Shown in pieces: positions 1,967-62,899 of a stretch of 64,000 nt of DNA. Position 1 is the stretch's first letter. Each line of letters opens with the position of its first letter. The position numbers and the translations under genes are program-made. The notes under the pieces were generated by a model that worked only from the letters and a program-made list of their open reading frames with translations, searched no databases and was not told where the DNA came from. This DNA comes from a virus (Duplodnaviria > Heunggongvirae > Uroviricota > Caudoviricetes): the IMG/VR virus record IMGVR_UViG_3300042895_002216. The stretch is one strand, 5' to 3'.

Positions 1967-2150
1967 AGTATAATAATCCTAACAGCAAGCCCTCTGCTTA
2001 GCGCTGAGTAAGGATCGAAGACGGGGATAGCCTCTTGACCGTTAGGTTAGAGTACTTCGGTACTCTTTAGTCAATGCGCACTACGCCCACCGAATCGTGT
2101 GTCGGCACAGTTTGTACGTTCTGGGGGTAATACAAAAACGTACATTTTTA

Positions 2151-2250
2151 GTCAGGAGTCCATTGGTTGGAAGCACCTCCCCAAGGTTGAGTAGCGGTAA
2201 GGCCGACTCTTTATGGCAAAGCGGTAACAGGTTCGAATCCTGTCCTGACT
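2151..2250 (+). ncRNA. atypical tRNA-like element, identity unresolved
   Basis: 5' GTCAGGA pairs with 3' TCCTGAC, and a canonical T-arm (CAGGTTCGAATCCTG) is present. About 71 nt of non-cloverleaf sequence lies between them. Acceptor and T-arm are identical to the element at 53354-53472. Upstream (2020-2150) are strong hairpins including a GAGTAC-UUCG-GTACTC tetraloop. Confidence 0.4.
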
Positions 2251-6113: not shown

Positions 6114-6959
6114 ATGAAGCATCTTAAGATATTTGAAAGTTGGGTCAACGAATCCCTTACTGCTGATCAAATCGCTGATAAAATTCAAATAGCCGTTGCT
6201 GGTTCAGGAACTGCAGAGGGTGATTTAGTATCAGCAATCAAGTCTATTCCCGATGCTGCATCCATGGTTCGTGTAAACAAAGCACTTAAAACCGGGTTCG
6301 ATACAAAGAGCTGGGATTACGCAAGTGTTGGCGATGCAATTACCGGAGAACTTGGATCCTTTGATCAAGATTACTTGGATCAAATCAACACTCACATAAA
6401 GAATATTAGAGCTGAGAAGTACTTAGGATCTTTCGTTGCTCCTCCTCCACCTGAAGATACAGTATTAAAGGTTATTGAGCCTAGGGTAATCCAACATGAA
6501 GGCTACAAACCAAAGAAGTACATAGACTCTAAAGGAAATCCAACAGTCGGTGTAGGATTCAATCTAAACCGCTCTGACTCAACGTCAATGCTTAGGTCAG
6601 TTGGTGCAAATCCAATAAAGATAAAGTCAGGCCAGTCTGCATTAACCGATCAGCAGATTAAAGCTCTTCTGCATACTGATCTTCAAGCCGCAAAGTCTTT
6701 AGCTAAAACTTTAGTATCAGATAATGGGAAAGTCAGCATAGCTAAAGTTTGGCCAAGCTTGCCACAATCAGTACAAGGAGTCTTAATTGAAATGGTATTT
6801 AATTTAGGAGCTAAAGGCCTATCTGAGTTTAACACGTTTCTACTTCACATAGCTTCAAAGAATTTCAAGGCTGCATCCAAAGAGATGTTAAATTCTTCAT
6901 GGGCAAAACAGGTCGGTAATCGAGCAATAACTCTATCTAACATTGTTAAATCTGCATAA
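6114..6959 (+). CDS. leader-family protein with GH24 (T4-lysozyme-like) domain
   Basis: MKHLKIFESWVNE leader. HEGYKPKKYIDSKGNPTVGVGFNL carries the Glu/Asp/Thr catalytic arrangement of T4-type lysozyme. Confidence 0.75.
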   Translation: MKHLKIFESWVNESLTADQIADKIQIAVAGSGTAEGDLVSAIKSIPDAASMVRVNKALKTGFDTKSWDYASVGDAITGELGSFDQDYLDQINTHIKNIRAEKYLGSFVAPPPPEDTVLKVIEPRVIQHEGYKPKKYIDSKGNPTVGVGFNLNRSDSTSMLRSVGANPIKIKSGQSALTDQQIKALLHTDLQAAKSLAKTLVSDNGKVSIAKVWPSLPQSVQGVLIEMVFNLGAKGLSEFNTFLLHIASKNFKAASKEMLNSSWAKQVGNRAITLSNIVKSA

Positions 6960-6980
6960 CTTTAGTATATTATTACTAAG

Positions 6981-7403
6981 ATGATAGCAGAAAACCGAAA
7001 AGCCCGACACGAATACACATTTTTAGAGACATGGACCGCTGGGATCTCCTTAACTGGATCAGAGGTCAAGTCAATTAAGGCGGGTAACCTTGACTTTACT
7101 GGATCCTGGTGCGAACTTCGGTCAGGTGAATGCTTCTGTCGAGAACTGTACATAAAAGAATCAACCTCAGCATACAGTCACCAAGGTAAACGAGAGAGGA
7201 AGCTACTCTTAACTAAAAAGGAACTAAAGAAACTAAATAAACTGATGGACAGGGGCCTCACAATCGTTCCAGTAAAGATCTTCGTTAACTCGTCAGGTTT
7301 AATTAAGATTGCGATTGCTCTAGCCAAAGGAAAGAAGGATTGGGATAAGCGACATGTTATTAAAGAACGAGATCTCAGCCGAGCTTTAACCTCTGAATAC
7401 TAG
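6981..7403 (+). CDS. smpB: SsrA-binding protein SmpB
   Basis: NRKARHEYTFLETWTAGISLTGSEVKSIKAGNLDF ... RKLLLTKKELKKL ... IALAKGKKDWDKRHVIKERD aligns motif-by-motif with bacterial SmpB. The TAGTATATTAT motif at 6963-6973 sits immediately upstream, so the mRNA is probably leaderless. Confidence 0.85.
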   Translation: MIAENRKARHEYTFLETWTAGISLTGSEVKSIKAGNLDFTGSWCELRSGECFCRELYIKESTSAYSHQGKRERKLLLTKKELKKLNKLMDRGLTIVPVKIFVNSSGLIKIAIALAKGKKDWDKRHVIKERDLSRALTSEY

Positions 7404-36138: not shown

Positions 36139-36192
36139 ATGGAGACGATTAAAGATTTTGGGGTATTGCGAGGTTCTAGTGGTATAAGTTAA
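36139..36192 (+). CDS. 17-codon leader ORF upstream of tRNA island (METIKDFGVLRGSSGIS)
   Basis: ATG..TAA ORF between the promoter motifs and the terminator at 36217-36247. Codons 2-9 (GAG ACG ATT AAA GAT TTT GGG GTA) are each decoded by a tRNA in the downstream island. Confidence 0.3.
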   Translation: METIKDFGVLRGSSGIS

Positions 36193-36216
36193 GAAATTAC
36201 ATAACTAACAACAACG

Positions 36217-36247
36217 AACCTCGAACCTAAAAAATTCGAGGTTTTTT
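36217..36247 (+). terminator. intrinsic terminator between leader ORF and tRNA-Phe
   Basis: ACCTCGAA-cctaaaaaa-TTCGAGGT hairpin followed by TTTTTT. Confidence 0.6.
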
Positions 36248-36256
36248 GTTTTAGCA

Positions 36257-46383: not shown

Positions 46384-47052
46384 ATGAAAATTACATTACA
46401 GCCTCATCAGCGAATATGGTTCACGTCAGATACTCACTACAAACACTCAAATATTTGTAGAGGAACGTCTAATTGGCCGGCCGAGAGTAAGACCAGAGAT
46501 TTCGATACCCTGGATAAAATGAATGATACGATTGTTAACAATATCAATCACCTAGTCAGCGAAGACGATATTCTTTTCCACTTAGGAGACTGGTCGTTCG
46601 GAGGATTTGATAACATCCAGGAGTTCAGAGACAGGTTGCTCTGTAAGAACATTCATTTGGTTCTAGGTAATCACGACCAGCACATCGAGAATGACAAGGG
46701 AGGAGTCAAGGCTCTATTTGCATCAGTGAATCATTACGTTAGACTGGAACTTACTGTTCCAAACGTGCCGAACGAAATAAATCCAGCGAAGACTATTAAG
46801 AAAACGTTTGTGCTATGTCATTACCCAATCGCAAGTTGGCACGATATGAACCGTGGAGTAATTCAATTACATGGTCACGTTCACTTAGGCCCACACAATA
46901 AATTACATGCAGGTAAAGCAATGGACGTTGGCATGGACGGCAACTTCATGGACCCATATTCTCTTCAAGAAATCGCAAAGATTATGAGAGACCGTCCAGT
47001 TAAGTGTTTGGTTTTACCGAACGATCACCATGAAACAAACGAAGGAAGATGA
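46384..47052 (+). CDS. calcineurin-like metallophosphoesterase
   Basis: GDWSFGG, GNHDQH and HGHVHLG motifs. Confidence 0.65.
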   Translation: MKITLQPHQRIWFTSDTHYKHSNICRGTSNWPAESKTRDFDTLDKMNDTIVNNINHLVSEDDILFHLGDWSFGGFDNIQEFRDRLLCKNIHLVLGNHDQHIENDKGGVKALFASVNHYVRLELTVPNVPNEINPAKTIKKTFVLCHYPIASWHDMNRGVIQLHGHVHLGPHNKLHAGKAMDVGMDGNFMDPYSLQEIAKIMRDRPVKCLVLPNDHHETNEGR

Positions 47053-47486
47053 TACAGAATACACACAATAAAATCGGCGAGGGTAATCGACTCCTTGCGC
47101 AATTCATGGGAGGCACAATTGTCTCTAGTGAAACCTACGAAATGCCACACGGCTCAAACGGCAAAGGCGTCTTTGAAAAATGGGGTGGACTCTCTGGAAT
47201 TCCCAGTCACGATCAGGAATTGGCTGCACTTGGAATATTTAGATATGAAACCTCATGGAGCTGGATTTTTCCAGTAATCGAAAAGATCGAGAGTCTTGGT
47301 TTCTGCGTCAGCATTCACCGTAGAGGAATTCAAATTATTAAGTACGACAAGGATCGAAGATTTGAAGCGACTGACCTAATTATCGATGAAGACTTCTTAG
47401 ATGATTATTCTGGAGATGTTAAGCGAATTGCTGCATGGGACTGTTGCGTTTCTTTTGTTGACTGGTACACAAAGAGGAGCCAATAA
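47049..47486 (+). CDS. hypothetical protein
   Basis: 145 aa, ATGA-coupled. Confidence 0.45.
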   Translation: MIQNTHNKIGEGNRLLAQFMGGTIVSSETYEMPHGSNGKGVFEKWGGLSGIPSHDQELAALGIFRYETSWSWIFPVIEKIESLGFCVSIHRRGIQIIKYDKDRRFEATDLIIDEDFLDDYSGDVKRIAAWDCCVSFVDWYTKRSQ

Positions 47487-47872
47487 TGGAATTAACGGGA
47501 CCCTCTAAACTAGTAGTCGCATCCAGTCCAATACACGGACTTGGAGTATTCGCAACGCAATCTATTAGCCCAGGCGAGATTATTGAAGAATGTCATTTCA
47601 TAACATTCGATGCGACATCAGATGATCCTATTTTTAATGATTATCGATTCATAGTCGGCCGTTCTGAGAAATTAGGCTGCGTAGAGTATGGCGTTCTTCT
47701 TGGATTCGGAGGAATCTACAATCACAGTGAAACTCCAAATATAAATTGGAGACATGATACTGAAAAGAATTGTTTTACGTTCTTTGCACTAGTCGATATT
47801 AATCCAGGAGACGAATTGTGCTCGTATTACGGAGGGCCTGAATATTGGAAATCAATTGGTATGGAAATTTAG
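47486..47872 (+). CDS. SET-domain protein (putative protein-lysine methyltransferase)
   Basis: GLGVFATQSISPGEIIEEC ... YNHSETPNINW ... INPGDELCSYYG match the SET-domain core motifs (GxG, NHS..PN, ELxxxY) in a minimal ~128-aa protein. Confidence 0.65.
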   Translation: MELTGPSKLVVASSPIHGLGVFATQSISPGEIIEECHFITFDATSDDPIFNDYRFIVGRSEKLGCVEYGVLLGFGGIYNHSETPNINWRHDTEKNCFTFFALVDINPGDELCSYYGGPEYWKSIGMEI

Positions 47873-47946
47873 TATAATAACAAAGTAGTTAGCTAATCGG
47901 GCTAATGTAATCTCTATATTTTAATAATTAATAAAAACAAAAAAAA

Positions 47947-49380
47947 ATGACAGAAATCATCACATCATCACTTATGTACGGACTACCGGCCTTAATAGGG
48001 GTAATCGTATTTTTTTATGCACTATCTCTACGTCGAATCGTGCCAACTAACGTAGTCCACATCGTTCAACGAGGAGACAAAACTGTTTCCTATGGCGTAG
48101 GTAAAGGCTCTAACGTTTATTATGAGTGGCCGAAGTGGTTACCTAAAATCGGAGTTATGGTCAGATCATTGCCAGTATCTAACTTTGATATTGACTTAGC
48201 TAAATATTCAGCGTATGATAAGGACCGTGTCCCTTTCGTAGTTGACGTTAAGGCATTCTTCCACATTGCTGATACAAATAAAGCTGCCGAGAAAGTAGAA
48301 TCATTTGACGAGTTGAAAAAGCAGCTGGAAAATGTAGTTCAAGGAGCAGTTCGTTCTATTTTAGCAAAGTCTAAATTGGAGGAAATTATGGAAGAACGAT
48401 CTATCTTTGGCGAAAAATTTACTGAAAGTGTTAAAGTTGATTTATCTAATTGGGGAGTTGAGCCTATTAAAAATATCGAGTTAATGGATGTTAGAGATAC
48501 TGACGGTTCGAGCGTTATTCACCAGATTATGGCTAAGCGAATGTCTGCGATTGATATGGAATCCAGAACTGAAGTTGCTAAAAACACTAAATTGGCAGAG
48601 CAGGCGGAACTAACTGCTCAACAAGAAATTGATGTAACTAAAGCAGAAACTCAGAAAATTGCAGGAGAGGCGCAAGCTCAATCAATACAGGCAATCGGTA
48701 TTGCCAAAGCAGAGGCTACAAAAAAGGCAGGTATTGCAGAACAAGAGTCAATATCAGATATCGCTCAAGCTGAACGAGCTACTGCTGAACAGCAAATGGA
48801 GGTCGTTAAAGTTAATGAGATTAAGCAGGCTGAAATTGATAAGGAAAAGGCAATTATTGCAGCTGAGCAACAAAAACGCAAAACTGAAATTGACGCAGAG
48901 GCTAATAAATTTAGAATTGAGACTGAGGCTTCTGCTACACTTGAAGCACAGATCAAAAATGCAGAAGGTGTTAAAACTCTGGGCCAAGCAGAAGCAGATA
49001 TTATTAAAGCAAAGGGTATATCGCAGGCTGAATCCAAGAAAGCAATGGAGCTTGCTGGAGTAACTGCCCAAACAACCCTAGCAAAAGAGATTGGCGAAAA
49101 CAAATCTTACCAAGAATACTTGATCAAAATTAGAGAAGTTGAAGTAACTCAAGTAGTCGGAGTTGCACAATACGAATCGATGGCAAAAGCAATGGCTGGA
49201 GCTGACTTGAAACTATTGGTAAATAGTGGAGACGTACACTCAGGAATTGGCAAGTTAAGCGACCTATTCACAGCTAAAGGAGGTTCACAGATTAACGGGC
49301 TTCTTGAATCATTGAAACAGACACCTGAAGGTAAAGGCTTACTGGCTATGCTTAACAAGCTTACACCAGGCGCAGAATAA
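47947..49380 (+). CDS. SPFH/band-7 (flotillin-like) membrane protein
   Basis: N-terminal TM helix, SPFH-like region, then a long A/E/Q/K-rich coiled (flotillin-type) repeat region. Confidence 0.65.
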   Translation: MTEIITSSLMYGLPALIGVIVFFYALSLRRIVPTNVVHIVQRGDKTVSYGVGKGSNVYYEWPKWLPKIGVMVRSLPVSNFDIDLAKYSAYDKDRVPFVVDVKAFFHIADTNKAAEKVESFDELKKQLENVVQGAVRSILAKSKLEEIMEERSIFGEKFTESVKVDLSNWGVEPIKNIELMDVRDTDGSSVIHQIMAKRMSAIDMESRTEVAKNTKLAEQAELTAQQEIDVTKAETQKIAGEAQAQSIQAIGIAKAEATKKAGIAEQESISDIAQAERATAEQQMEVVKVNEIKQAEIDKEKAIIAAEQQKRKTEIDAEANKFRIETEASATLEAQIKNAEGVKTLGQAEADIIKAKGISQAESKKAMELAGVTAQTTLAKEIGENKSYQEYLIKIREVEVTQVVGVAQYESMAKAMAGADLKLLVNSGDVHSGIGKLSDLFTAKGGSQINGLLESLKQTPEGKGLLAMLNKLTPGAE

Positions 49381-49401
49381 TTTTTAATAAATTTAAGACA
49401 A

Positions 49402-49432
49402 AAAGTCTCTAGATTTGTCTAGAGACTTTTTT
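49402..49432 (+). terminator. intrinsic terminator
   Basis: AAAGTCTCTAGA-tttg-TCTAGAGACTTTT followed by a T-run. Confidence 0.65.
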
Positions 49433-49461
49433 ATTTTGGTATAATAGTAAAAAGAAATAAC

Positions 49462-50199
49462 ATGACAGCACCATTTGAATTTTACGAAGTAGGCGGAAAG
49501 GTAAGAGACGAGATCTTGGGACTTCAGTCCAAAGACGTTGATTACGTAGCCGTGCCGAAAGCAACTCTGCTTGAGGAATTTCCTGAGGCGGCTGATATGT
49601 TTGACTTGCTAGTTGACTACTTAACTCGTGAAAAATTCCAGATATTCCTGATCACCAAAGAATGTTACACAATCAGAGCAAAATTTCCAGACGGACATAA
49701 GTACCAAGGAGTTGCTGATTTTGTAATGTCTAGAAAAGAGACTGGATACGTGCCGTTTACCAGAACTCCGATCATTAAGCCTGGAACCCTATTCGACGAT
49801 TTACAGAGAAGAGACTTTACTCTTAATGCCCTGGCAAGAGAAGCGGACGGCTCGATCATTGACTACTTTGATGGGCTGACTCACTTGAAGCTTGGGCTAT
49901 TAGTAACGCCATTACCTTGCGAGGAAACGTTTCACGATGATCCTTTGAGAATCTTGAGAGCTATTAGATTTTCAATCACTAAAGGATTTACTATCCCTGA
50001 GGAAATGTCTCAAGTAATAAAGCACTACGATTACGAAGTTAAGATGTGTGTAGTATCAGCTGAGAGAATCAGGGAAGAGCTCTTTAAGTGTTTCAAACAT
50101 GACACTCATGCAACGATACTTAAGTTATCAGAGTACCCTTTCCTTATGGAATACATTTTTAGAACACAAATCTGGTTAAAACCAACAATGGAAGAATAA
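49462..50199 (+). CDS. tRNA nucleotidyltransferase (CCA-adding) head domain protein
   Basis: FYEVGGKVRDEILGLQSKDVDYVA is the polymerase-beta-type head-domain signature of class II CCA-adding enzymes. Only 245 aa. Confidence 0.7.
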   Translation: MTAPFEFYEVGGKVRDEILGLQSKDVDYVAVPKATLLEEFPEAADMFDLLVDYLTREKFQIFLITKECYTIRAKFPDGHKYQGVADFVMSRKETGYVPFTRTPIIKPGTLFDDLQRRDFTLNALAREADGSIIDYFDGLTHLKLGLLVTPLPCEETFHDDPLRILRAIRFSITKGFTIPEEMSQVIKHYDYEVKMCVVSAERIREELFKCFKHDTHATILKLSEYPFLMEYIFRTQIWLKPTMEE

Positions 50200-50753
50200 T
50201 GGAAGCAACAATAAATGGAAGAATAATGGAAGCAAAAATAAACTGGGTTCTAGACCAACATAGAGACACGAATCACATGTACGATAAGTACTTGCCTTAT
50301 GAATTTCATTTACGTATGGTCGTTGAAGTTGCAAAGAAATTTCAATCTTTAATTACGTATGAGAAAGATTTTGAGCATGTACTACTTGGAGCATGGGGCC
50401 ATGATCTTATTGAAGACACCAGAGTTTCATACAATGATGTTAAGCAGGCGCTTGGAGAAATGGCAGCAGATATTGTCTATGCGTGCTCAAACGAGAAAGG
50501 CAAGAGTCGTAATGATCGGGCTAACTACCGATACTACGATGGAATCAGAACAACGCCGTATGCGATATTCGTTAAGTTATGCGACCGAATTGCAAACGTG
50601 CAGTACTCAAAAATGTCTGGCAGCAGAATGTTCGAGATGTACAGAAAAGAAAATCCCGAATTCATGCAGCAATTAGGCTGGACGGCTGAAGAAAAATATC
50701 TTCATGAGTATGCCAATATGTTTGTATACTTAAGTAAATTATTCGAAGACTGA
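50199..50753 (+). CDS. HD-domain phosphohydrolase
   Basis: GAWGHDLIEDT is an HD motif. The protein lies immediately after the CCA head-domain gene, making a split two-ORF arrangement. Confidence 0.7.
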   Translation: MEATINGRIMEAKINWVLDQHRDTNHMYDKYLPYEFHLRMVVEVAKKFQSLITYEKDFEHVLLGAWGHDLIEDTRVSYNDVKQALGEMAADIVYACSNEKGKSRNDRANYRYYDGIRTTPYAIFVKLCDRIANVQYSKMSGSRMFEMYRKENPEFMQQLGWTAEEKYLHEYANMFVYLSKLFED

Positions 50754-50772
50754 AAATAAAAAAATTAATATA

Positions 50773-51975
50773 ATGGAAAATCAAAACAGCGTATGTTACA
50801 TTGGAAAAGTAACAGAAATCAAGGCAATCGAAGGAGCTGACAATATTGAGTTAGCGATCATCGGTGGATGGAATTGTATTACTAAAAAAGGACTACACAA
50901 GGCGGACGAATTTGTTATCATTGCAACAACTGATGCAGTTATTCCGGAAGAGTTATCCGAAAAATTGGGAGTAACCGGTTACCTGCGTAAGGGCAATCGA
51001 GTTAGAACAGTTAAGTTGAGAGGAGTTTACAGTGAGTGTCTAATCATTCCGCTTAATGTGCTTGAAGGTTCAGAAGAAATGAAGATCGGAGTTAGTAAAC
51101 AGCCTTGGGGCGATCAATTACAGTTGGGCCCTTATGACGATGCACTCGTTATTGAAGAAGGAGTTGACGTTAGTGAGATGCTTGGAATTTTCAAGTACGA
51201 ACCGCCAGTTAGACAGGTCCAACTTGCTTCAGGTAAAAAGGTTCGTTATCAAGACAATCCAAACTTTCATGTCTACTACAAGTTTCCTAACTTGAAAAAT
51301 GTTAGTGGAATGTTTACTGAAGAGGATATTGTGCAAATCACGCGTAAGATCCACGGTACGAATGCACGATACGGTATAGTTAAGAAGAATCGCTTGTCCT
51401 TCATGGATAGGATTAAAAAATTCTTTGGATTCGCCGGAGAGCTCTTTGAGTACGAGTACGTTTATGGATCTCATAATGTCGAGAAGGGTTCTGATTCTCA
51501 AGGGTTCTATTCAACTGATGTCTGGAGAACAATTGCCGAGAAGTACGATATCAAGAACAGGTTGCTTACCTTAGCAAAAACTAAAAATAGGATTGGTGAA
51601 CTTGGAGCTGGTATTGTAATTTACGGAGAAATTTACGGTGCAGGTATTCAAAAGAATTACGAGTACGGTCTGACTGATATTGAATTCGTTGGATTCGATG
51701 CCACAGTAAACGGCAAATACGAGTCCACTATTTACACTGAATTCCTTTTCAAAGAAGCGCTAGAGTTACCTCACGTTGGAGTCCTATACACAGGACCGTG
51801 GTCACAAGAGACACAAGACCAGTTCGTCTTTGGTAATATGATCAAAGGAACTAAGGTGCCGCATGAAGGCATTGTTATTAAGCACATAAGCGGTGAGCGT
51901 AATCGAGTAGCAAAGGTAATTAATCCAGACTATTTGATTTACGGAGAAAAGCACGATATTGGAGACTCACATTAA
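50773..51975 (+). CDS. ATP-dependent RNA/DNA ligase-family nucleotidyltransferase (RNA-ligase-like)
   Basis: Candidate motif I KIHGTN, motif IV EGIVIK and motif V-like VAKVINP in the expected order and spacing. Confidence 0.5.
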   Translation: MENQNSVCYIGKVTEIKAIEGADNIELAIIGGWNCITKKGLHKADEFVIIATTDAVIPEELSEKLGVTGYLRKGNRVRTVKLRGVYSECLIIPLNVLEGSEEMKIGVSKQPWGDQLQLGPYDDALVIEEGVDVSEMLGIFKYEPPVRQVQLASGKKVRYQDNPNFHVYYKFPNLKNVSGMFTEEDIVQITRKIHGTNARYGIVKKNRLSFMDRIKKFFGFAGELFEYEYVYGSHNVEKGSDSQGFYSTDVWRTIAEKYDIKNRLLTLAKTKNRIGELGAGIVIYGEIYGAGIQKNYEYGLTDIEFVGFDATVNGKYESTIYTEFLFKEALELPHVGVLYTGPWSQETQDQFVFGNMIKGTKVPHEGIVIKHISGERNRVAKVINPDYLIYGEKHDIGDSH

Positions 51976-51989
51976 TAAAACAAATACAA

Positions 51990-52463
51990 ATGGAAGAAGA
52001 AAAATTACCGATCAGAATCTATTTAGATGACGTTCGAACACCAATTGAACAGGACTGGATAGTTGTTAGATCATACCAGGAGTTCAAGGACAAGGTGATG
52101 GAAATTGGATTAAAGAACATTCACATGATCTCATTGGATCACGACTTGGGTGACTCAGCTATGTCAGAGTACTTCACGAATGTAAGTCCTAACTATAAGC
52201 TAGACTACACGAACATTACTGAAAAAACTGGAATGGATTGCACTAAGTGGTTGGTGAATCAGTTCTACGACGAGAATCCAAAGAGAATTGAGATGAGTCG
52301 TTTCGATAAGCGTAATGTGCCGATTCGGTTTCCAGCAGTCTACGTACACTCAGCGAATCCAATTGGATCAGCGAACATGATGGGTTACATTAATAACTTC
52401 TTCATGAATGAGGGAGAACCTCAAAACTGCGTGAGAGTTCAGATACCTCACACGGTAATGTAA
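51990..52463 (+). CDS. hypothetical protein
   Basis: 157 aa. Confidence 0.45.
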   Translation: MEEEKLPIRIYLDDVRTPIEQDWIVVRSYQEFKDKVMEIGLKNIHMISLDHDLGDSAMSEYFTNVSPNYKLDYTNITEKTGMDCTKWLVNQFYDENPKRIEMSRFDKRNVPIRFPAVYVHSANPIGSANMMGYINNFFMNEGEPQNCVRVQIPHTVM

Positions 52464-53200: not shown

Positions 53201-53353
53201 AACACATATCACAAATAAAAATGTGAGTTACTTTGAAATAGCCAATTATAAGCCAACATAAAGCCGTTGGGTACAGAAGGAGTAATTAACCGGAGTATAG
53301 GCAACAATTGTGACACTGTAACAAATACCCATTTGAGTGGTATGTTTTAAATA

Positions 53354-53472
53354 GTCAGGTGGCGGAATTGGTAGACGCTATGTGGTGCGGAACTCGCTTC
53401 GTTCACCACTCCCTTAGCGGGGAAAACAAAGGTAAGAGATGTGACCATGCAGGTTCGAATCCTGTCCTGACT
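53354..53472 (+). ncRNA. atypical 119-nt tRNA-like gene (possible intron-containing or insertion-bearing tRNA)
   Basis: Acceptor GTCAGGT/TCCTGAC. Leu-like D-arm (GGCGGAATTGGTAGACGC). Canonical T-arm. The central region is a ~45-nt extended hairpin (GCTATGTGGTG...CACCACTCCCTTAGC) instead of a normal anticodon arm. Confidence 0.4.
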
Positions 53473-53638
53473 ACGATTGTTAACACGCTTGCTTCGTGTT
53501 GAAATTGTCAGATAACGTGCAACGATAGTTTAAAGACTGTAGAAAAAGAAACACTGACTGGAAGGATTCTTATGGACGCATAAGAAGTAAAAGTCCACAA
53601 CTAAACCTACTTACAATTGGCAAGGTAAATTGAATTAA

Positions 53639-59161: not shown

Positions 59162-59245
59162 GGAAGAGTAATTCAGCTGGCGCTGGACCTAGTCTTGAAA
59201 ACTAGTGGTACCTTCGGGTATGGGGATCGATACCTCACTCTTCCG
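59162..59245 (+). tRNA. tRNA-Ser (TGA), class II, unusual T-loop
   Basis: Acceptor GGAAGAG/CTCTTCC. Anticodon arm CTAGT-CTTGAAA-ACTAG. Variable hairpin TACC-TTCG-GGTA. T-loop ATCGATA is non-canonical. Confidence 0.65.
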
Positions 59246-59510: not shown

Positions 59511-59598
59511 GGAGAGTGAAGCAACAAGGTGTTGTCGCCGCCTGCTAAGCGAGCGGTTCCCGAAAGGGAATGGGGATCGAGACCTCCACTCTCCGCCA
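59511..59598 (+). tRNA. tRNA-Ser-like (GCT), class II, CCA encoded
   Basis: Acceptor GGAGAGT/ACTCTCC. Loop CTGCTAA with a weak anticodon stem. Variable hairpin TTCCC-GAAA-GGGAA. Same unusual T-loop (ATCGAGA) as 59162. Confidence 0.55.
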
Positions 59599-62506: not shown

Positions 62507-62899
62507 ATGAGCGGTAGAACTAGAAATAACCAAGATGTCGATACTATGATGAACGACATACTTGATGCGCTCGACGTAATCAAGGCCAAATTGCCAAATG
62601 GCGAACTTAAGATAATTCAAGAGAGAATGGAAGGTTTAGAATCTTCCCAAGAGGACATGCACGAAGATCTGAGACAGATCAAAAAGCAGCTGCTTGATCC
62701 TGAAGACGGTATTGTCGTTAGAGTAAATAAGAACACTGAATTTCGTAAAAGGAAGGAAGAGGAGGCTAGAATTTATCAAGTAATATTGGATGAACATAAG
62801 GAGCTTATGTCATGGAAATCTACTGTAACTAAAATACTATGGATTATAGTAACGGCAGTTGTCGGAATTGCAGTGGGTATGATTTTTAAGTCAAATTAA
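62507..62899 (+). CDS. C-terminally TM-anchored protein
   Basis: Coiled N-terminal part and a C-terminal TM helix ILWIIVTAVVGIAVGMIF. Confidence 0.5.
   Translation: MSGRTRNNQDVDTMMNDILDALDVIKAKLPNGELKIIQERMEGLESSQEDMHEDLRQIKKQLLDPEDGIVVRVNKNTEFRKRKEEEARIYQVILDEHKELMSWKSTVTKILWIIVTAVVGIAVGMIFKSN

Follow-up and report, generated by a model that had tools for sequence, protein, structure and literature searches.

The stretch of DNA considered here, 64,000 nucleotides of the IMG/VR virus record IMGVR_UViG_3300042895_002216 (Caudoviricetes; the whole stretch is hereafter the window), encodes on its plus strand an SmpB protein, the partner of transfer-messenger RNA (tmRNA) in trans-translation. 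A first reading, made from the sequence alone, had singled out the interval 6963-7403, which runs from the first base of the motif TAGTATATT to the last base of the smpB stop codon, and had remarked that no canonical tmRNA could be recognised. The locus is made up as follows:

6943-6971, plus strand: promoter-like site of smpB, TTGTTA, 17 nt, then TATATT; its last nine bases (6963-6971) are TAGTATATT
6981-7403, plus strand: smpB coding sequence, 140 amino acids, a full-length SmpB with RHEY motif, central loop, and the tail GKKDWDKRHVIKERDLSRALTSEY at the C-terminus

I show below that the open reading frame (ORF) at 6981-7403 is a genuine, constrained, full-length phage SmpB, and that a tmRNA is absent from the window and from the flanks that were searched; the origin of the RNA partner is then weighed.

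The phage SmpB and its promoter-like site

The assignment to SmpB made by the sequence-only reading is confirmed by profile searches. The ORF scores 152.2 bits against the Pfam SmpB family PF01668 (cut-off 27; profile positions 1-138 of 143), and 150.7 and 146.8 bits against the NCBIfam equivalogs NF003843 and TIGR00086 (cut-offs 130 and 119.1, respectively). Its best sequence matches in the PDB are the SmpBs of Thermotoga, Thermus, Aquifex, Mycobacterium and E. coli, with E values down to 1e-35. The AlphaFold model, built with 27 homologues, reaches a predicted local distance difference test (pLDDT) score of 85.6 and displays the SmpB barrel with flanking helices, a C-terminal helix being predicted at residues 123-139. 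When the model was compared with the PDB by Foldseek, the top 21 matches were SmpB structures (template-modelling (TM) scores 0.65-0.80, core root-mean-square deviation 1.8-2.5 Å), and no non-SmpB match appeared below E = 0.1.

In SmpB, the central loop and the N-terminal RHEY-type residues are the parts that meet the decoding centre and the tRNA-like domain of tmRNA, and the GKKxxDKR tail at the C-terminus is needed for entry into the ribosomal A site. The phage protein was aligned with phage and bacterial SmpBs and with that of E. coli. The invariant SmpB columns are retained; the NRKARHEY segment and the central loop STSAYSHQGKRERK are present, with H67, R71 and R73 conserved, and the tail is complete, following the pattern GKKxxDKRxxIKERD and keeping GKKDWDKRHVIKERD. 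Among the tail columns, G117, K118, K123 and K128 are invariant and R124 nearly so; in length the tail is close to that of Thermus, its end aligning within 3 residues of the Thermus C-terminus. A diverged protein of SmpB fold that had lost its key residues and taken up another role, the case which the sequence-only reading had held against itself, is not what alignment and model reveal: the residues are present. Within the phage's own clade the ratio of nonsynonymous to synonymous substitution rates (dN/dS) of smpB is 0.05-0.17, indicating purifying selection. To judge from its sequence, the phage SmpB has all the features required for canonical trans-translation; being so equipped and under selection, it would therefore require a tmRNA.

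Fold, conserved residues, central loop and GKKxxDKR tail are shared with bacterial SmpBs (E. coli, P0A832; Thermus thermophilus and Thermotoga maritima, 1j1h, 2czj, 4v8q and 7ljp), the identity to the solved ones being 37-49%. Unlike these, the protein is phage-encoded, belongs to a clade of its own, has a short N-terminus and has no tmRNA gene in sight nearby; its central loop is 2-5 residues shorter than in the SmpBs of Bacteroidota. The closest SmpBs, proteins of 135-143 amino acids from metagenomes and viral contigs, form a separate clade with at least 58% identity inside it, and the nearest cellular SmpBs, about 50% identical, are those of Bacteroidota. Homologues were found by tblastn in phages of 735, 642 and 635 kb and in Lak megaphages, and at least 573 IMG/VR stretches encode an SmpB relative; megablast of the smpB locus against the INPHARED phages found nothing.

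These relationships bear on whether the gene belongs to a phage at all. One of the contigs that carry it is filed in a bacterial metagenome-assembled genome (GCA_043533675.1), and many SmpB matches in INPHARED are prophage borders beside a host smpB. Yet a bacterial gene, be it host DNA or part of a mis-binned contig, is extremely improbable: smpB sits between a phage lysozyme gene on its 5' side and other phage genes, the first of them an ORF of 277 amino acids on its 3' side, on contigs of 100-180 kb with 39% GC, 28 tRNAs and phage promoter motifs; the nearest relatives are a separate clade on viral contigs; and the best cellular match is only about 50% identical.

The promoter-like site ends 9 nt before the smpB ATG at 6981, for a predicted leader of 0-4 nt. 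The motif at its end, TAGTATAWT, occurs 12 times in the window, always on the plus strand, against 1.6 +/- 1.4 copies expected from shuffled sequence:

TAGTATAWT copies, plus strand: 1966, 6963, 10858, 11770, 13909, 31524, 33047, 43632, 47870, 53666, 58935, 62958

At five copies (6963, 10858, 33047, 53666 and 58935) an ATG follows 6-9 nt past the motif, the distance being 6-7 nt at the four that do not belong to smpB, which suggests a class of leaderless phage transcripts. Since the -10 element abuts the ATG, the smpB mRNA would be leaderless or nearly so, as the sequence-only reading had proposed; a start predicted at the ATG or within a few bases of it is plausible. There is no terminator between the upstream lysozyme gene and smpB, and read-through transcription is therefore possible as well.

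The tmRNA question and the sister lineages

ARAGORN and Infernal, among the checks proposed by the sequence-only reading, found no tmRNA in the window; with the Rfam models there was none at the gathering threshold, and up to E = 10 only a chance tmRNA_permuted match of 19 bits in the tRNA array. An nhmmer profile built from nine phage tmRNAs, which recovers 32 full-length tmRNAs in other loci, has no match in the window either, and a custom scan for a T arm with a 7-bp acceptor stem, in standard or permuted order, returned only known tRNAs and the two scaffold RNAs described in the next section. Among the known genes of the window only tRNA-Ala has a G3.U70 acceptor; the few other pairings that the scan flagged for G3.U70 are a weak all-wobble acceptor at about 36159-36254 or spurious. 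As far as the window goes, the earlier remark on the missing tmRNA is correct.

The picture is different in sister lineages. Phages with an SmpB that shares 45-57% identity with the window's carry a fixed cassette, in which the smpB ATG lies about 100 nt past the end of a GOLLD RNA (Rfam RF02032, 282-326 bits) and a convergent tmRNA (Rfam RF00023, 65-68 bits at three loci) lies one or two small ORFs past smpB. Loci are given below by their L numbers:

Cassette loci: L182 8582-11662; also L161, L181, L184, L191, L153, L154 and others
Cassette tmRNAs: L161 11277-11673; L181 11912-12307; L191 11273-11669; about 25 more loci

When 83 smpB loci were searched with nhmmer profiles, 24 had both GOLLD and tmRNA, 5 GOLLD only, 3 (truncated loci) tmRNA only and 51 neither, so that a tmRNA lies 0.5-2 kb from smpB in 27 of the 83. 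The cassette tmRNAs are canonical, with the acceptor GGGAGUG/CACUUCC containing G3.U70, an ACCA end that is fully encoded in about half of them, and tags such as ...EEVVVA, ...SKVAA and ..AVAA. ARAGORN detects just 2 of the 27, while Infernal with RF00023 and the nhmmer profile detect them; ARAGORN alone is therefore an insufficient test for tmRNA in these phages, and this part of the proposed check would have been misleading if used by itself. A block of 36 nt from the pseudoknot-1 (PK1) region of these tmRNAs, GGCACGYAGTGAGANNTNNNCTATCACTTWAATCTA, occurs, by an exhaustive scan of IMG/VR, in 117 stretches and has no match in 185,579 GTDB species-representative genomes (the bacterial assembly in which one carrier contig is filed lies outside that set); the cassette type of tmRNA is therefore phage-specific.

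The window differs from the cassette phages in that no GOLLD precedes smpB and no convergent tmRNA follows it (Rfam, nhmmer); protein-coding genes fill both spots. Its lineage has lost the smpB-tmRNA linkage that the sister lineages have kept. No literature report linking GOLLD with smpB or tmRNA was found. Promoters of the cassette phages look like the Bacteroidota type (TTG ... TAnnTTTG; L182 8690-9990); one of them in L182 ends 4 nt before the smpB ATG (tatctttgtcctATG), so that there too a promoter abuts smpB, though of a different type.

The search was extended outside the window. With ARAGORN, Infernal and nhmmer, about 93 kb of smpB surroundings (about -27 to +66 kb) were covered in this phage or its close relatives, and the PK1 pattern alone was applied to about 65 kb more of the clade. 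Neither the 17 kb upstream of the window in the same phage nor a close relative's contig reaching to -27 kb yielded a tmRNA, and neither did the loci of 20 other relatives (355 kb) or the 10 kb on either side of the homologues of the window's right end in close relatives; relatives of the ORF at 62507-62899, found in a metagenome scan with at most 80% identity, have no tmRNA nearby. None of the six tRNA arrays seen contains one. The PK1 block has no match on four IMG/VR contigs of this SmpB clade (128 kb, IMGVR_UViG_3300027749_000049; 66.6, 39.6 and 36.5 kb) or on a collinear relative of 253 kb (IMGVR_UViG_3300027759_000046), and blastn of a phage tmRNA against INPHARED gave nothing useful.

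To extend the absence of tmRNA to the whole phage would nonetheless go too far. Many metagenome contigs, some of them 0.2-1 Mb long, encode the identical SmpB protein, and the contigs of this phage include JBFDNG010000453.1 (109 kb), B570J40625_100000021 (179.6 kb) and Ga0453055_0000091 (104 kb). Of the carrier contigs, one of 109 kb reaches about 100 kb upstream of smpB and another of 179.6 kb extends about 170 kb downstream of it, which gives a genome of at least about 270 kb; moreover, the sister phages carry tmRNAs, one of them far from its smpB. This last case is the contig IMGVR_UViG_3300033995_001164 of 309 kb (L157, L217), where about 190 kb separate GOLLD and smpB, at about 23 kb, from the tmRNA block at 211-224 kb; unlinked arrangements therefore exist.

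Such an arrangement may hold here as well: the same functional SmpB would work with a canonical phage tmRNA encoded elsewhere in the genome, the ancestral cassette having been split by rearrangement. I regard this as possible, though tentatively so. The linked cassette-type tmRNAs of the sister lineages and the 309-kb contig speak for it, as do the tmRNAs that related phages carry within their tRNA or scaffold-RNA arrays, the serine recombinase gene and the contig-breaking GC-rich region just upstream of the window, and the about 200 kb of the genome beyond the sequence read. It is opposed by the about 93 kb around smpB in which three methods found no tmRNA, by the lack of any PK1 match on the clade contigs and on the 253-kb relative, and by the six tRNA arrays devoid of tmRNA.

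The reading that I favour, with about even confidence, is that the phage SmpB is a working protein whose partner is the tmRNA of the host, of the Bacteroidota type. The smpB gene of this large freshwater phage would be transcribed from the phage promoter that abuts its ATG, and the protein would bind the tRNA-like domain of alanyl-tmRNA and move into the vacant A site of ribosomes that have stalled on truncated mRNAs. There its C-terminal tail would license trans-translation, by which ribosomes would be freed and aborted peptides tagged. The phage would in this way add to the supply of the system's protein component at a time of host expression shut-off and of heavy RNA damage. The host is probably a member of Bacteroidota, to judge from the nearest cellular SmpBs, from the depletion of Shine-Dalgarno-like 4-mers upstream of 86 ORFs (4.7% against a background of 13.5%) and from leaders that are A-rich in the window's ORFs, as they are in Bacteroidota.

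Several points weigh against a host partner. That the protein binds host tmRNA, when it is expressed and what the phage gains from it are points that I infer, for a host that is itself a probable one. About 30% of the phage genome was read directly; beyond this part, contigs extend upstream for about 90 kb more and downstream for about 110 kb more. The PK1 scan, moreover, asks for an exact match to a degenerate 36-mer, which a diverged copy would escape. A phage tmRNA nearly always accompanies smpB in the sister lineages (GOLLD and tmRNA at 24 of 83 loci, tmRNA at 3 more), and the 309-kb contig makes an unlinked phage tmRNA a real possibility here.

The want of a phage tmRNA near smpB might also be taken to mean that the phage SmpB is an antagonist, which would sequester host tmRNA or block stalled ribosomes and so shut down trans-translation in the host; phages do interfere with host quality-control pathways. 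But the SmpB variants known to have lost their function lack the tail or the DKR motif, whereas the phage protein has conserved its tail, its DKR motif and the residues close to the decoding centre, all of them under purifying selection, and sister phages pair the same protein with a tmRNA of their own. An antagonist is accordingly very unlikely.

tRNA-like scaffold RNAs

The sequence-only reading had named one nearby candidate for a tmRNA, a structured tRNA-like element at 2020-2250. A tRNA-like element does exist there, but the conserved unit is confined to 2149-2250, and it turns out to be one of a large family, here called scaffold RNAs:

2149-2250, plus strand: type-A scaffold RNA, acceptor AGUCAGG/CCUGACU, D arm, T arm, three internal hairpins
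53353-53473, plus strand: second scaffold RNA, T arm and acceptor identical to type A, different insert of 70 nt
Other copies: L001 1032-1122 and 1197-1322; L005 887-1495; L016, 7 copies in 5 kb

In other phages the conservation of the type-A unit, 101 nt long, starts exactly at AGUCAGG and stops at CCUGACU, while the about 175 nt upstream of it (1975-2147) are unrelated between phages. The consensus fold has an invariant 7-bp acceptor stem, a covarying D stem and a normal T arm (ACAGG-UUCGAAU-CCUGU, then CCUGACU) whose stem covaries in relatives; in place of the anticodon arm there is a 4-bp hairpin with a 5-nt loop, accompanied by further hairpins (one by the consensus fold, one by eye). The acceptor pairs A1-U72, G2-C71 and U3-A70 are invariant in 8 homologues; with U3-A70, the alanine identity pair G3.U70 is therefore missing.

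As a tmRNA, in one piece or two, the element was accordingly rejected: it has the tRNA-like topology, but no G3.U70, no tag ORF and no pseudoknots. None of the tmRNA models (Rfam, nhmmer profile) matches 2149-2250, and tmRNAs are about 250-400 nt long as against its 101 nt. Nor do 1975-2147 and the type-A unit appear to form one RNA, the flank being unconserved and ending in a terminator-like hairpin. The flank itself, about 170 nt between the promoter motif at 1966 and the type-A unit, holds a UUCG hairpin and a GTACGTT...AACGTAC hairpin followed by TTTTT. It is not conserved in other phages with type A and may represent a small RNA in its own right.

The second scaffold RNA lies just downstream of RNA-repair genes and shares an identical D arm with the tRNA-Leu next to it; about 2 kb upstream of the window there are two more scaffold RNAs. 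The family consensus reads AGUCAGG-UG-GCGGAAUUGGUAGACGC ... ACAGGUUCGAAUCCUGU-CCUGACU-A, with a variable, often structured insert of 20-130 nt replacing the anticodon arm. At least 188 distinct elements of 68-190 nt, with 146 insert types, were counted in the loci examined. Most have a D arm of the tRNA-Leu type; A73 is present in 93%, usually followed by C, and few elements encode a full CCA. From phage to phage the acceptor sequence stays the same, whereas the T stem covaries, and the 21-mer formed by T arm and acceptor strand occurs exactly in at least 120 IMG/VR stretches. With tRNA-Leu and with the engineered "tRNA scaffold" RNAs these molecules share the 7-bp acceptor, the tRNA-Leu-type D arm (UGGCGGAAUUGGUAGACGC), the canonical T arm and, in 93%, the A73 discriminator; a foreign structured insert stands where the anticodon arm would be, and there is no 7-nt anticodon loop. 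Some of them register in Rfam as weak tRNAs carrying a large insertion, and no other Rfam family matches; the family is not in Rfam, and a literature search for the sequence and the family found no relevant paper. The scaffold RNAs are apparently a large, undescribed class of phage small RNAs.

Two further identities were considered and set aside. For suppressor tRNAs, ARAGORN calls a tRNA-SeC(tca) in one relative, but the arm in question folds as an 8-bp stem with a tetraloop. For Y RNAs of the YrlA type, the best Rfam score at any element or array is 18.5 bits (L005), against a cut-off of 69; a YrlA match of 40 bits in L182 (8763-8860) is likewise under the cut-off.

The type-A insert is present in 19 loci, and wherever the flank suffices (16 of 16) smpB follows 1.4-5.3 kb downstream on the same strand, a synteny that spans SmpBs only about 46% identical. 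The cassette phages (L182, L161, L181, L191 and others), with their homologous smpB (45-57%), also have type A upstream on the same strand. The wider order on these freshwater phage contigs is type-A scaffold RNA, tRNA(s), GOLLD, smpB and tmRNA. A separate arrangement is found at L122 8664-9600 (minus strand), on a viral contig of 123 kb, where type A lies directly upstream of a circularly permuted two-piece tmRNA with the tag DNVYQLGGVQRRFAA and the acceptor GGGGGUG/CACCUCC, which contains G3.U70; no smpB is seen in that 14-kb locus.

The synteny raises the question of whether the phage SmpB, uncoupled from tmRNA, acts on scaffold RNAs such as type A, either in a tag-less rescue or with the RNAs as decoys or a switch regulating SmpB. 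Mycobacteriophage DS6A may serve as a precedent: it encodes a molecule consisting of scarcely anything beyond the tRNA-like domain of tmRNA, and molecules of this kind inhibit tmRNA, possibly through titration of SmpB (PMC4131195). The presence of type A upstream of smpB in every lineage examined, its place beside the L122 tmRNA and the lack of an anticodon loop in the scaffold RNAs would also fit. Still, a role as SmpB partner is quite unlikely. The type-A acceptor lacks the alanine identity pair, a point in which the tRNA-like RNAs of the window differ from the DS6A case, and a normal D stem and the inserts take up the room that SmpB occupies on a tmRNA's tRNA-like domain. The family is large and diverse, and 118 of 140 element-bearing loci have no smpB in the stretch fetched; the intact tail and DKR motif, for their part, favour canonical trans-translation. 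The synteny can be explained by an inherited RNA island and is so read here, with a small chance left of a functional tie to SmpB.

Genome context and biological meaning

The window has 39% GC and contains 26 tRNA genes found by ARAGORN, plus two class-II tRNA-like genes that ARAGORN overlooks; it also encodes phage lysozyme, tail-collar and sigma-factor genes and gyrase. Features other than those of smpB and the scaffold RNAs are:

41139-41804, plus strand: ClpP homologue (Pfam CLP_protease, 196 bits, full length)
49462-50199, plus strand: CCA-adding-type nucleotidyltransferase, 245 amino acids
50773-51975, plus strand: RNA ligase with PHA02142 OB domain
51990-52463, plus strand: cyclic-phosphate receiver domain protein
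59162-59244: class-II tRNA-like gene, 47.9 bits as tRNA-Sec (Rfam); anticodon loop CUUGAAA, i.e. UGA, serine
59512-59597: class-II tRNA-like gene; anticodon loop CUGCUAA, i.e. GCU, serine

The two class-II genes have unusual T loops, GAUCGAUAC and GAUCGAGAC, respectively. Inside the main tRNA array, at 37371-37432, there is a match to the freshwater-1 RNA motif (RF02979; 67.3 bits, E = 2e-13), the gathering score being 72. A homologue of Tad6, a Thoeris inhibitor, is also encoded in the window.

The RNA-repair and tRNA-maturation set extends over 41139-42222 and 46384-52463, and includes an AAA_33 kinase-like P-loop protein and a metallophosphoesterase. ClpP is the protease family that degrades ssrA-tagged proteins; a prohead protease is possible for the window's homologue, yet a full-length match of 196 bits looks like a true ClpP. 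Together, the RNA ligase, the kinase-like protein, the phosphoesterases, the CCA-adding-type enzyme and ClpP are a plausible fit, as context and not as proof, for a phage that expects RNA damage. With these genes and the cyclic-phosphate receiver protein in view, the tie to damaged mRNAs suggested by the sequence-only reading would be plausible.

Upstream of the window, an ORF-free stretch of 55-70% GC, rich in short repeats (L001 500-860 and L005 1-700, the former about 2.2-2.5 kb upstream of the window start), sits between a serine recombinase gene and a scaffold-RNA array, and several assemblies break there. Rfam has no match in it; conceivable identities are a site of recombination, the end of the genome and a structured RNA.

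SmpB in huge phages is already known, and the gene of the window adds another case. For huge phages, tmRNAs and SmpB have been listed among the translation genes, the genes being reported and a linkage of smpB with tmRNA not (Al-Shayeb et al. 2020, PMC7162821); at least 8 of the supplementary GenBank files of that study annotate an SsrA-binding protein, the best hits being mostly from Bacteroidetes. Lak megaphages and the 735-kb LR756501 likewise have many tRNAs, translation-related genes and a Bacteroidota-affine SmpB, to which the phage SmpB is 37% and 47% identical, respectively, and they belong to a different SmpB clade. Phage tmRNAs are known, in turn, from mycobacteriophages of the Bxz1 group and from Bacillus phage G (Hudson et al. 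2014, PMC4131195). These phages and DS6A carry the RNA without the protein; the window shows the reverse.

To sum up, ribosome rescue is something in which large phages invest, as the phage SmpB shows; the probable reason is that truncated mRNAs arise from infection and from the RNA-cleaving defences of the host. That relatives keep smpB together with a phage tmRNA and GOLLD, whereas the lineage of the window has separated them, is a useful contrast, and the separation therefore offers a natural test of whether a phage SmpB can work with host tmRNA. The cassette of GOLLD, smpB and tmRNA may, besides, be a concrete lead to the function of the large RNA GOLLD. This cassette and the scaffold RNA family may matter more than smpB itself.

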